Notes: generated from the sequence alone by a model not told the origin. A stretch of DNA of 24,745 nt from a virus (IMGVR_UViG_3300017917_003727); one strand, 5' to 3'; positions 1-24,745 are shown, counted from the first letter of the stretch. Numbers and translations are program-made.

Positions 1-81
1 GGTACTTCAGGTTCTTCAGGAACTAGCGGTACTTCAGGTTCTTCAGGAACTAGCGGTACTTCAGGTTCTTCAGGAACTAGC
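1..81 (+). repeat. 27-bp tandem repeat x3 (GGTACTTCAGGTTCTTCAGGAACTAGC) encoding GTSGSSGTS
   Basis: Exact copies at 1-27, 28-54 and 55-81; a degenerate 9-bp periodicity continues to about 162. Confidence 0.95.
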
Positions 82-831
82 GGTTCTTCAGGAACAAGTG
101 GTTCAAGCGGCTCTTCAGGAAGTTCAGGTAAATCAGGAACATCTGGTTCAAGTGGAACAAGTGGTGTTGTATCATCAGTGGCGACAGGATACGGATATCC
201 AATAGTTTATTTACCTGATAGTCAAATATTTGGATACTGTGAAAACATGTTCCAATACAATGGAGGAGGACTTGTTTTTGGAGCAACCCCAGATGCAACT
301 TTATCGGCAGATACTTTCATTAATACTGGTGTTGTAAGTCATTACCCAATAAGTTATAGTGATGGTGGTCTAACACCTTTAGCACAAGGTCAGGGTGATG
401 GTAGAATAATGAAAGGTATTACAAGCGGGACCTTAGCCGCAGCATCTCTTTGTTATATGACTACTACGGTTGGTGGTGGAATATATACAAATGTGGGTAG
501 ATGGGCTAACACAGACGCAGACGCACCTCAAAACTCAAGGGGATTATTAGGAGTAATACTTTCAGGTTCAACAGGAAATGACCAATTAAGAAATTTTGTG
601 GTTGACGGATTGGTTACAGTACCAACAAACTTAATTCAAAACAAACCAGCAACAGAAACAAACGCATTGGGTGTTCCAATATACATCAGCCCAACTGCAG
701 GTAATTTTGATGTGGTTGCACCATCCACATCAGGTCAAGTTGTTAGAATTGTTGGTCACGTTGTGGCGGTTTCCCAAGGTCAATGGTGGACAATACTATT
801 TAGACCTGATGGAACATGGTTAGAAATATAA
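1..831 (+). CDS. 5'-truncated collagen-like (Gly-X-Ser) repeat protein, probable virion fibre/decoration protein
   Basis: Frame 1 is open from base 1 into ORF 178..831, so the true start lies upstream of the window. Bases 1-162 encode 18 Gly-X-Y triplets (GTS/GSS/GKS). The C-terminal Gly-rich beta domain (WANTDADA...GLLG...G.V...IYISPTAG...APSTSGQVVRIVG) resembles phage capsid-decoration/fibre domains. TAA at 829-831. Confidence 0.75.
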   Translation, partial: GTSGSSGTSGTSGSSGTSGTSGSSGTSGSSGTSGSSGSSGSSGKSGTSGSSGTSGVVSSVATGYGYPIVYLPDSQIFGYCENMFQYNGGGLVFGATPDATLSADTFINTGVVSHYPISYSDGGLTPLAQGQGDGRIMKGITSGTLAAASLCYMTTTVGGGIYTNVGRWANTDADAPQNSRGLLGVILSGSTGNDQLRNFVVDGLVTVPTNLIQNKPATETNALGVPIYISPTAGNFDVVAPSTSGQVVRIVGHVVAVSQGQWWTILFRPDGTWLEI

Positions 832-836
832 TAATA

Positions 837-867
837 AAAAAGGTCGGACTAAAATTCCGACCTTTTT
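837..867. terminator. Bidirectional rho-independent terminator
   Basis: AAAAAGGTCGGA (837-848), 7-nt loop, TCCGACCTTTTT (856-867): a perfect 12-bp inverted repeat with A/T tracts on both sides, lying between convergent genes. Confidence 0.9.
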
Positions 868-22885: not shown

Positions 22886-22894
22886 TTATAAGAA

Positions 22895-23110
22895 ATGGGA
22901 AGACAACTAACTATAGAATGGATAACCGCCACACAAGGATACAATGTTTACATTTGTGATACAAGTTTAATTACTTGTGTGTATTTGGCAACCATAAACG
23001 ACTCTGATTTACCATACACAATCGAGTTACCACCACCTTTTGATAATTTAACAGAATACAAAGTGAAAATTGTTGATTCAAAAGGATGTGAAATTATTAA
23101 AACATTCTAA
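22895..23110 (+). CDS. Small beta-rich hypothetical structural protein
   Basis: 71-aa ORF (YNVYICD...CVYLATI...KVKIVDSKGC) whose stop overlaps the next start as TAATG. Confidence 0.7.
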   Translation: MGRQLTIEWITATQGYNVYICDTSLITCVYLATINDSDLPYTIELPPPFDNLTEYKVKIVDSKGCEIIKTF

Positions 23111-24745
23111 TGTCAGTATTAACTAAAAATGATTGTGGTGTAACAACTATTTTACCATTAGGAATTGATTGTTCCGTAGTTAACGCAACAACACCACTAA
23201 CATATGATGGTAGAATATACTTGAATATTACAGGAGGTAGTGCACCTTACAGTATAAGTTGGAGTAATGGGTTTAAAACCCAAACAATAAAAAACTTACA
23301 AGTTGGAACTTACACTGGTACTGTAGTAGATTATTATGGTGACTATTCTGCAACTACAGTATGTACGGTGGATTCAACAGCAATCTATGTTGATTATTTT
23401 CAGAACTGTTATAGTGGGGATTATCTATATCTTACAGGTCTTACGCAGACATTTGAAAAATCAAAAGTTTATAGGTTAAATGAAAACCAAGGTTGTTATA
23501 TATATTCAGGTCAAACAATTGTTTCAGGTAAAACTCTAACCACAGATACGTTATCGTCAGGACCGTATGATACTTGCGAAGAGTGCGACCCACCACCTCC
23601 ACCATTACCTTATTATCCTGAAACACTTTGTCTATATACGGATGAAAACACATTCACCGCTTACCCATTTGTGTTTACAAATTTTGTTAATAACAAACCA
23701 GCCTATAGTGGTACTTCAAGTAGCAGCTCAGGGTTTACAATAAGTTGGTATACTGCTAACACATATTCTTATTGGGTTGTTGGTGGTTATACACAATTAA
23801 AAAATACTTCAGACACATTCAACCCACTTGGTGTTTGGACACTTGATGGAACGCAACAAAATTGGAGTGCAGTATCAGGTTCTTGTCCATCAGCACAAGC
23901 TTTATCTTTCACAACCACAACAAATAACGAGACATGTCAAGGATTGTGTGACGGTAGTGTTGTTGTATCGGCTAAAGGCGGAACTGGTGGGTATATGTAT
24001 TCTTTGGATGGGGTAAACTACACGGCAGTTGCCATGTTCAAAAAATTGTGTCCTCAAACCAATACCGCAATATATGTGAAAGATAGTTCTGGTACAATAG
24101 TGGTTGGTTCGTTTACCATAAACCCAGGACCAAAGAGAGGTCAATATACTTTATCTCTTCAGACTAAACAAGTTTATACCACACAAAATTGGGGGACTCA
24201 AACAGTAAAAAAATTAGAATATGTTGTGAATGTATCTCCACCGTTACCTGATGGTGTGACAATAAATTTACCACTCATCATATCTGTAGATGCATCAATG
24301 ATAGAACCTGGTAGCGCGACCACAGTATATACACCAACATTGTACTCAGGTGGTACAGCTATCTCACCAACATCTAACACACTTATTTCAACTGTAGTAA
24401 CCAAATCAAATGTTTATAGTTACCGATATCCATACTCAACAATACAAAAAAAATATAGTGTAAGTTACCCAAATATAACAATAAAGAAAGGTTTAACCGT
24501 TTCTGGTACTGTAATATCAACAATAACCAAAGTAAGTGATGGATTATCAAGTTGTTGCCAACCTTTCAGAATAGAAAATGCGGGAACTAATACACAATAC
24601 TATACGTGGAAAAACTGTACTGGAGGTACTGAAAACAGCTCAACAACAGGTAGTGGAGGTAACTTTGCGGTTTATGCGGGTCAGGTAGTAAATTTATGTG
24701 CTTGTAGTGTTACACCACTTACTTTTGGTTCACCAACCTCACTCA
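23110..24745 (+). CDS. 3'-truncated SprB-repeat, Cys-module virion/adhesin-like protein (not in the ORF track)
   Basis: ATG 23110; frame 1 has no stop to the window end (>=545 aa). SprB-like repeats: DGRIYLNITGGSAPYSISWSNG...NLQVGTYTGTVVDYYG (~23164-23340) and CQGLCDGSVVVSAKGGTGGYMYSLDG...VKDSSG (~23908-24093). Confidence 0.85.
   Translation, partial: MSVLTKNDCGVTTILPLGIDCSVVNATTPLTYDGRIYLNITGGSAPYSISWSNGFKTQTIKNLQVGTYTGTVVDYYGDYSATTVCTVDSTAIYVDYFQNCYSGDYLYLTGLTQTFEKSKVYRLNENQGCYIYSGQTIVSGKTLTTDTLSSGPYDTCEECDPPPPPLPYYPETLCLYTDENTFTAYPFVFTNFVNNKPAYSGTSSSSSGFTISWYTANTYSYWVVGGYTQLKNTSDTFNPLGVWTLDGTQQNWSAVSGSCPSAQALSFTTTTNNETCQGLCDGSVVVSAKGGTGGYMYSLDGVNYTAVAMFKKLCPQTNTAIYVKDSSGTIVVGSFTINPGPKRGQYTLSLQTKQVYTTQNWGTQTVKKLEYVVNVSPPLPDGVTINLPLIISVDASMIEPGSATTVYTPTLYSGGTAISPTSNTLISTVVTKSNVYSYRYPYSTIQKKYSVSYPNITIKKGLTVSGTVISTITKVSDGLSSCCQPFRIENAGTNTQYYTWKNCTGGTENSSTTGSGGNFAVYAGQVVNLCACSVTPLTFGSPTSL

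Follow-up and report, generated by a model that had tools for sequence, protein, structure and literature searches.

The 24,745-base viral stretch IMGVR_UViG_3300017917_003727 (hereafter the window, meaning the whole of the DNA analysed; ~30% G+C) carries an island of sugar-handling genes that is probably the virion protein O-glycosylation locus of an uncultivated T4-like jumbo phage from lake water. The phage probably sugar-coats its own particle proteins, because ~14 soluble enzymes, with two protein-directed initiator types among them, lie between mucin-like and collagen-like fibre genes. The two initiators are a glycosyltransferase (GT) of family GT60, encoded by o16, and a BAHT domain fused to a GT4 domain in o02. 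We establish here to which families the enzymes belong, that they are soluble, that the DNA is of phage origin and which genes neighbour the island in its relatives.

Scans of the window proteins with Pfam, NCBIfam and PHROGs profiles gave an ordered picture of the 23 open reading frames (ORFs; Table 1), 22 of which are on the plus strand, the sole minus-strand gene being o02 (919-3204). The ORFs form five segments, namely: o01; enzyme block A (919-10559) with a SET-domain gene; a trio of fibre-like genes together with an 87-aa ORF; enzyme block B (14584-20056); and o22-o23. Blocks A and B alternate with fibre-like proteins that carry a collagen-like GSS/GTS tract, Thr-Pro (TP) tracts or lectin-type domains. 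Besides a GT4-BAHT/GT9 fusion, block A encodes a pair each of hexapeptide acyltransferases and FkbM methyltransferases, a DegT-like protein of 214 aa, a DUF6625 protein and two ORFs that match no family. Block B encodes the GT60 enzyme, a 123-aa protein, a GT2 enzyme, an FkbM methyltransferase, a weak Methyltransf_24 match and an HtrL_YibB protein with a second GT-A-like domain. No tRNA gene was found in the 24,745 bases.

We propose o16, a conserved core gene, as the initiating polypeptide N-acetylhexosamine (HexNAc) transferase. It matches the GT60 profile PF11397 with 225.6 bits against a cut-off of 21. Its predicted structure (predicted local distance difference test, pLDDT, 94.4) shows a GT-A fold with a C-terminal beta-rich domain. 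Across 44 diverse homologues, D98-S99-H100 (the DxH motif) and, distal to it, H235 are conserved. The best Swiss-Prot match of the model is Dictyostelium Gnt1 (Q8T1C6; E 1.4e-25, template modelling score 0.65). Among the matches listed, those ranked 2-30 (n = 29) all belong to the polypeptide GalNAc-transferase (ppGalNAc-T) family, three of them being labelled inactive, and every one of the best 32 PDB matches is a ppGalNAc-T. The GT60 membership named by an earlier first-pass annotation of the window is thus borne out by profile, fold and nearest structures. To our knowledge, every characterised member of the GT60 and BAHT families attaches the first sugar to a polypeptide. Known GT60 acceptors are Thr residues in Pro/Thr-rich mucin-like repeats, or hydroxyproline. 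At E<=0.001 the searched library contains 4,517 representative clusters of the superfamily, and GT60-like proteins occur in Megaviridae and Pandoravirus entries. Many GT60 relatives among the library's representatives (P0242-P0252 and others) are very large, reaching 2,461 aa; they match in two to five stretches and may consist of tandem GT60 domains.

The C-terminal half of o02 scores 220.8 bits with TIGR04414, for which the equivalog cut-off is 200, and TibC (4RB4) aligns with it over residues 13-383 of 406 (E 1.8e-36). The catalytic Asp is kept, as GDTIAW aligns with the position of D110A in 4RB4, and so is the four-Cys iron-binding site, of which CxxC, WCP and the last Cys all align. The BAHT assignment made at first pass therefore stands on score, full-length alignment and active-site residues. 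A 1226-aa ORF of Microcystis phage Mel-JY01 (PP395634.1; 3065-8430 in L107), annotated as 'methyltransferase FkbM', matches the GT4 and BAHT parts of o02 with 43% identity over 98% of o02. It lies directly 3' of a gene for a very Ser-rich 'structural protein' with ISSS and SGS repeats (P0391), which may be a BAHT acceptor of this cultured phage.

A Megablast comparison of the window with 50,697 phage records returned no match, and its phage identity therefore rests on its relatives. The GT60 gene o16 is borne on an 88,745-base contig, and 350 IMG/VR contigs encode GT60 relatives at 77-85% identity. One large relative, G001 (294,914 bp; 98% complete by CheckV), has a T4 Gp23 capsid gene (213.7 bits), and 13 of the 23 window ORFs have homologues in it over most of their length, at 29-82% identity. 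The IMG/VR relatives and the Gp23 match uphold the phage origin, which the first-pass annotation had put down for confirmation, and by kinship the window reads as DNA of a T4-like jumbo phage lineage. Terminase_6C was not found in G001, and Gp23 is absent from five fragments of 44-73 kb that have the window's arrangement. The host is probably a member of the Bacteroidota, and the SprB repeat of o23 fits such a host. No transmembrane segment is predicted in any of the 23 window ORFs; therefore the window encodes no Wzx, Wzy, polyprenyl-phosphate glycosyltransferase or transporter. A cellular exopolysaccharide or lipopolysaccharide (LPS) locus, whether Wzx/Wzy- or ABC-dependent, is ruled out by the relatives, by Gp23 in G001, by the lack of transmembrane ORFs and by the absence of any such Pfam family. 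A giant eukaryotic virus was rejected on a search for the capsid of nucleocytoplasmic large DNA viruses (NCLDV), which found none in five large relatives including G001 and in which the controls were silent too. We also considered the moraphages as the lineage: PMC12619734 describes them as Bacteroidota jumbo phages with four core GT groups and puts them outside the T4 group, whereas the Gp23 match of G001 is clear.

Three proteins of the window (o01, o15 and o22) carry low-complexity tracts of the Ser/Thr/Pro type, in line with the first-pass count of at least three. In o22, nine TP tracts account for 307 of the 932 residues and join about nine small Cys-rich domains; the protein is 19% T, 12% P and 5% C, and has no Pfam match. 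o01 matches PF01391 (35.4 bits) and combines a GSS/GTS Gly-X-Y tract with a 220-aa globular C-terminal domain; its 5' end lies beyond the window, and tail-fibre PHROGs match its collagen part only. o15 lies directly upstream of the GT60 gene. Of the lectin-type proteins between the enzyme blocks, o12 matches phrog_8510, a 'virion structural protein', and has its N-domain in common with o14, the LamG part of which is 34-40% identical to annotated structural proteins of Flavobacterium phage immuto, S-PM2 and Syn1. The small ORF o13 is present in 10 related loci.

Proximity of GT60 to such proteins recurs in the relatives. A TP-tract ORF lies within 10 kb of the GT60 gene in 72 of 80 related loci, and in 36 of the 64 loci with enough sequence the tract is found in the ORF immediately upstream. 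The GT60-adjacent proteins belong to several unrelated N-domain families and end in swapped modules for carbohydrate binding or adhesion, among them LamG, legume lectin, CBM5/12, CBM4/9, F5/8C and PKD, or carry collagen repeats. Farther afield, a pair of GT60 genes at 45% identity follows a Peptidase_S74 tail fibre and a TP-tract protein, and a second distant pair adjoins a 1723-aa protein bearing GP38.

Further proteins of these types were observed in relatives. Beside the Gp23 capsid gene of G001 is a 140-aa gene (104655-105077; L089) whose product consists of a 'MAC+K' N-domain of ~65 residues and a Thr-Pro tail of 70 residues. Of 35 GT60-adjacent proteins, 20 begin with this N-domain, and the 140-aa protein may serve to decorate the capsid with a mucin-like brush. 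G001 also has two oxygenase domains of the prolyl 4-hydroxylase (P4H)-type, 2-oxoglutarate- and Fe(II)-dependent class (288908-289207 and 291415-291681; L099 and L100), which have the block A homologues on one side and a GPQ-type collagen-like gene (292,949-294,628) on the other. Their positions suggest prolyl hydroxylation of phage collagen-like proteins; the window itself has no P4H-type oxygenase. Another relative, G002 (L108), encodes collagen-like proteins of 3,072 and 1,823 aa (2350-11568 and 14085-19556), in which the Gly-X-Y repeat extends over 1,677 and 1,194 residues.

GT60 and the HtrL-type protein o21 form a conserved pair. GT60 is present in all 80 related loci and the o21 homologue in 76, while most other window genes occur in few. 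The spacing from GT60 to o21 runs from 0.8 to 9.3 kb in the 76 loci and, binned by 100 bp, falls into 23 classes; in G001 the two genes are 17.5 kb apart. The cassette of G001 contains nucleotidyltransferases, an epimerase/dehydratase, GT10, GT11, GT25, GT61, Fringe/GT31-like and WcbI proteins, and methyltransferases. Marine and other distant relatives (44-49% identity) show the order GT60 (twice), variable genes, HtrL, in which the variable genes include a sulfotransferase, GT29, a CMP-sugar synthetase and methyltransferases. Such a gene order has the look of an exchangeable island for glycan structure that is flanked by two fixed genes. In a 44%-identical relative (P0264), the cassette has GT29 sialyltransferase-family and CMP-sugar synthetase-like genes beside the gene for the GP38-bearing 1723-aa protein, which hints at a sialic-acid-like cap. 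The core pair is also carried by the cultured phages XacN1, Xoo-sp13, Stenotrophomonas CM1 and RAS14.

The first-pass annotation had counted about 10 GT domains, four class I methyltransferases, two acyltransferases and an aminotransferase. Seven GT domains are supported (GT4, BAHT, the o05 GT-B domain, GT60, GT2, HtrL and the GT2-like C-domain of o21) and three are candidates only (both halves of o07, and o08), so that ten is an upper estimate. Three FkbM methyltransferases are solid, but the fourth methyltransferase is weak (PF13578, 19.4 bits). Both acyltransferases, o04 and o09, match hexapeptide-repeat profiles; their NCBIfam matches, CatB/Vat-like in the case of o09, are below the equivalog cut-offs. 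The aminotransferase matches the DegT profile, but is half-size, the match to PF01041 being limited to profile positions 24-96 of 360. Since G001 has the 214-aa form too, with 77% identity, o03 is compact and conserved, not the product of a broken gene.

o05 has no Pfam or NCBIfam match, and its AlphaFold model (pLDDT 90.4) has its best PDB matches in BshA, MshA, PimA and a mannosyltransferase. The Atlas neighbours of o08 are viral, its GT25/WavE leads are distant only, and it too has no Pfam or NCBIfam match; the neighbours of the o21 C-domain are GT2 clusters. NCBIfam gave nothing for o05, o07, o08 and o16, and PDB sequence searches with o16, o21, o07 and o08 returned nothing usable. The SET gene o11 lies where block A gives way to the fibre genes, and its 129-aa product has homologues in G001 (69% identity), in the 735-kb uncultured phage LR756501 (48%) and in Stenotrophomonas phages; it is a putative methyltransferase that may act on lysines of phage or host proteins.

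From the families and neighbourhoods we infer the acceptors, the donor sugars, the order of the steps and the benefit to the phage, as follows. The acceptors, o15 and o22 with their Thr-Pro tracts and o01 with its Gly-Ser/Thr tract, would be fibre or decoration proteins made in the cytoplasm. The GT60 enzyme o16 would begin a chain by attaching HexNAc to a Thr or Ser residue in the TP tracts, or else to hydroxyproline. The BAHT domain of o02 would start a second type of chain on Ser of another acceptor, perhaps o01, which the fused GT4 domain would extend. o21, with its HtrL and GT2-like domains, would add the next sugars; o05, o18 and the candidates o07 and o08 would lengthen the chains, and the FkbM methyltransferases and acetyltransferases would cap them. 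Donor sugars would come from the host or from elsewhere in the phage genome. Exchange, among related phages, of the cassette that lies between GT60 and o21 would make the glycan differ from phage to phage. The coat might serve protection, receptor masking or control of adsorption, as the first-pass annotation suggested.

Several points weigh against this scheme. The acceptor proteins in this phage are candidates, and o15, o22 and o23 are placed on the virion by the analogy of their domains. The co-occurrence of GT60 with TP-tract genes, which the first-pass annotation had put forward as a check, holds for the 72 loci, but of the 18 TP-tract genes in three large relatives just 5 are within 10 kb of GT60, where ~2.2 would be expected, an enrichment of only about 2-fold. 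Furthermore, several TP or collagen gene clusters of the relatives are remote from all GT genes, the kinship of the 80 loci means that their counts are not independent events, and the adjacency may just reflect a hot spot of fibre genes. The interleaving of enzymes and acceptor-type proteins is real in the window, as first described, but is a local arrangement that is not kept in all relatives: in G001 the block A homologues are at 269-285 kb and GT60 and HtrL at 59-80 kb, ~190 kb apart. The system was also called self-contained, which is more than the window shows, since it has no nucleotidyltransferase or dehydratase for donor sugars; genes of nucleotide-sugar synthesis were not found in it at all. 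With regard to the BAHT domain, no cognate autotransporter acceptor with strand-loop-strand repeats was found among the 23 window ORFs, which include no signal-peptide or transmembrane protein, and the acceptor therefore must be another Ser-rich protein; a GmhA-type SIS isomerase for heptose was not found in G001. Finally, the glycoprotein bands seen in phage XacN1 (see below) are not assigned to proteins, and periodic acid-Schiff staining is crude.

The target of the enzymes is where the evidence can be read in other ways. Soluble phage enzymes might act during infection on lipid- or protein-linked glycans of the host (LPS, capsule, adhesins), which could block superinfection or redirect sugar metabolism, the TP proteins being unglycosylated fibres. 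WbbJ/WcaF-type acetyltransferases, an RfbT-like FkbM protein, GT2, GT4 and HtrL are indeed typical of LPS and capsule loci, and the WcbI, GT25, GT10 and GT11 families of the G001 cassette occur in LPS loci too; peripheral GTs work without a transmembrane segment, and TP-tract genes are found far from GT genes too. We nonetheless regard such remodelling of the host surface as unlikely, as the window lacks a polyprenyl-phosphate transferase, flippase, polymerase and transporter, its two best-defined enzymes come from families in which every characterised member has a polypeptide as its target, and the module lies near tail-fibre and baseplate genes in distant phages. In addition, it is the XacN1 virions themselves that stain for glycoprotein (PMC5852040).

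A slightly less likely proposal divides the island: only the GT60/HtrL module (14584-20056) would serve phage proteins, and block A, joined to it in the window by rearrangement, would be independent, acting for example on another class of fibre, a polysaccharide or a small molecule. The separate positions of the two modules in G001 favour this, and so does the BAHT fusion of Mel-JY01, which occurs beside the Ser-rich 'structural protein' gene in the absence of GT60. Block A also travels with o22- and o23-like genes, near collagen-like genes and the two P4H-type oxygenases. Wherever examined, however, both modules adjoin fibre-like genes, and nothing indicates a non-protein target for block A; a division of this kind refines virion glycosylation rather than contradicts it. 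It should be noted that T4-like phages glucosylate their DNA. Here, too, the GTs might glycosylate modified phage bases against restriction, as in T4 or TET-associated systems; o21 matches TAGT weakly (19.2 bits, the cut-off being 27.5), and of the named Atlas clusters T4-Gluco-transf is nearest to o05, with a score (0.83) at chance level. We find this very improbable: the TAGT match is sub-threshold and the o21 C-domain has generic GT2 clusters for neighbours, a ThyA-family hydroxymethylase is absent from G001, and the methyl- and acetyl-capping enzymes with ~10 GT domains far exceed known DNA systems. A Tet/JBP search of G001 was negative as well, and counts for little, as its controls were also silent. 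A T4 beta-glucosyltransferase-like identity of o05 was rejected, as its model matches GT4 enzymes and T4 beta-glucosyltransferase is outside the best 50 PDB matches.

The positions of all features are collected in Table 1. A strong bidirectional hairpin (837-867) separates the convergent genes o01 (collagen-like) and o02 (GT4-BAHT). Apart from this hairpin, sigma-70 and terminator scans of the window are at chance level, and the promoter motifs TATAAATA and ATATTTAT occur in it at chance frequency. The 279-bp gap upstream of GT60 (14305-14584) has a TATAAATA match at 14487-14494, a motif that is at chance frequency window-wide.

Table 1. Features of the 24,745-base window, in order of position.
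Feature	Description	Position	Strand	Profile or remark
o01	Collagen-like fibre protein, 3' part	1..831	+	Candidate acceptor
Hairpin	Bidirectional, terminator-like	837..867		12-bp stem and T-run on both strands
o02	Fusion of N-terminal GT4 and C-terminal BAHT	919..3204	-	PF00534, TIGR04414
o03	Half-size DegT/PseC-like protein, 214 aa	3242..3886	+	PF01041, 45 bits
o04	Hexapeptide-repeat O-acetyltransferase, WbbJ/WcaF-like	3867..4430	+	PF00132
o05	Virus-specific GT-B fold glycosyltransferase, GT4-like	4456..5442	+	Predicted model
o06	FkbM-type methyltransferase	5429..6379	+	PF05050, 67 bits
o07	DUF6625 and C-terminal half; candidate two-domain GT	6376..8247	+	PF20330, 96 bits
o08	Virus-specific protein, candidate GT	8244..9170	+	
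o09	Hexapeptide-repeat acetyltransferase, xenobiotic/sugar class	9172..9720	+	PF00132, PF14602
o10	FkbM-type methyltransferase	9717..10559	+	PF05050, 34 bits
o11	Small SET-domain protein	10556..10945	+	PF00856, 70 bits
o12	Fibre-like protein, C-terminal LamG/ConA-like lectin domain	10961..12034	+	PF13385
o13	87-aa protein between the LamG genes	12049..12312	+	
o14	Paralogue of o12 with LamG lectin-like domain	12314..13267	+	PF13385, 77 bits
o15	N-domain, ~40-aa Thr-Pro linker and F5/8 type C (discoidin) domain	13373..14305	+	PF00754; candidate acceptor
o16	GT60-family GT-A enzyme	14584..15849	+	PF11397, 225.6 bits
o17	123-aa protein, variable cassette	15854..16225	+	No Pfam or PHROGs match
o18	GT2 glycosyltransferase, variable cassette	16218..17030	+	PF00535
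o19	FkbM/RfbT-like methyltransferase, variable cassette	17027..17698	+	PF05050, 53.6 bits; PF05575 weakly
o20	Probable class I S-adenosylmethionine-dependent methyltransferase, variable cassette	17677..18381	+	PF13578, 19.4 bits, below cut-off
o21	HtrL/WlaTC-like N-domain and GT2-like C-domain	18386..20056	+	PF09612, 66.7 bits
o22	932-aa mucin-like 'beads on a string' protein	20087..22885	+	Main candidate acceptor
o23	SprB-repeat adhesin-like protein	23110..24744	+	PF13573, two stretches; 3' end beyond window

A wider proposal, which we hold tentatively as plausible, is that aquatic T4-like jumbo phages possess a complete mucin-type O-glycosylation system, in which a eukaryote-like GT60 initiator (with BAHT in the present case) acts on very long TP or collagen-like stalks of their own fibres to build a glycocalyx that cassette swapping makes particular to each phage. 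If this is true, phage particles of lakes and seas bear strain-specific sugar coats made by their own enzymes, and the GT60-built coat is a widespread and unstudied layer of interaction between phage, host and environment, given the 4,517 clusters of the superfamily. In ecology and therapy, such a coat would bear on adsorption, stability, protease resistance, grazing and immune recognition. The eukaryotic GT60 and GT27 enzymes might, moreover, have an origin connected with a reservoir of phage GT60 genes. Furthermore, soluble cytoplasmic mucin-type initiators (GT60 and BAHT, as predicted here) that come with natural acceptor sequences could be of use in bacterial glyco-engineering.

With the protist GT60 enzymes (Gnt1, the hydroxyproline GlcNAc-transferase of Skp1; the polypeptide alpha-GlcNAc-transferases of Dictyostelium and Trypanosoma), to which the GT27 ppGalNAc-transferases are related, o16 shares PF11397, the GT-A fold and DxH. 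It differs from Gnt1 in that identity is only 24%, the protein is soluble and without a signal anchor, and the ~90-residue C-terminal beta-rich domain is its own. The domain of o02 resembles TibC, Aah and EhaJ in passing the equivalog cut-off, in aligning over the full length of TibC and in keeping the Asp and the four-Cys site; unlike them, it is fused behind GT4 and phage-encoded, has no autotransporter nearby, and a supply of ADP-heptose is not evident. Our literature search found no relevant paper on phage GT60 or on phage BAHT/TibC-type enzymes.

The giant viruses also glycosylate their own particles. Chlorovirus PBCV-1, with the N-glycans of Vp54, and Mimivirus, with its fibril glycans, carry out multi-enzyme glycan synthesis in the cytoplasm and bear methylated sugars on particle proteins. 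Virus-encoded multi-enzyme synthesis and, as proposed for the window, methylated sugars are the likeness between them. The giant viruses are eukaryotic, however, use other linkages and initiating enzymes, and have the NCLDV capsid, which was not found in the relatives here by a search with silent controls.

In the mycobacteriophages Che8, Corndog and others, phage cytoplasmic GTs reportedly O-glycosylate the phage's own structural proteins, and the glycan is said to shield the particle. The window resembles them in having phage GT genes beside structural-type genes: fibre-like genes flank both blocks, and distant relatives have tail-fibre and baseplate neighbours. The mycobacteriophages are small siphoviruses of Actinobacteria with few GTs, and it is the C-termini of capsid and tail-tube subunits that are modified, whereas the window has ~14 enzymes, GT60 and BAHT initiators, long mucin- or collagen-like candidate acceptors and a swappable cassette. 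Virion glycosylation in phages, which the first-pass annotation called poorly described, has thus already been reported for mycobacteriophages (Freeman et al. 2023, Cell Host Microbe 31:1216, as cited in PMC12619734) and is suggested by the staining of XacN1.

XacN1, a jumbo phage of Xanthomonas, is a cultured relative with the same core pair. Its virions gave at least two Schiff-stained bands, and the authors proposed phage-encoded virion glycosylation (PMC5852040). The phage encodes a GT60 protein, ORF334 (46% identity), and a full-length o21 homologue, ORF330 (41%), and next to them are baseplate wedge genes and a gene whose 3313-aa product carries (TP)n tracts. The GT cluster, ORF328-ORF334 (Yoshikawa et al. 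2018, PMC5852040), is like that of the window in its conserved GT60/HtrL pair and its variable insert. It differs in the Pseudomonadota host, in a GC content of 50% and in the cassette, which has a carbamoyltransferase instead of the GT2, FkbM and methyltransferase genes; in the XacN1 stretch examined there is no homologue of the GT4-BAHT fusion, and an equivalent of block A was not seen nearby. In that paper the GT family was not recognised and the stained bands were not assigned to proteins (PMC5852040). Taken together, virion glycosylation as such is already known from the mycobacteriophages and proposed for XacN1, and the novelty of the window lies in its enzyme families, in the kind of acceptor proposed and in its scale.

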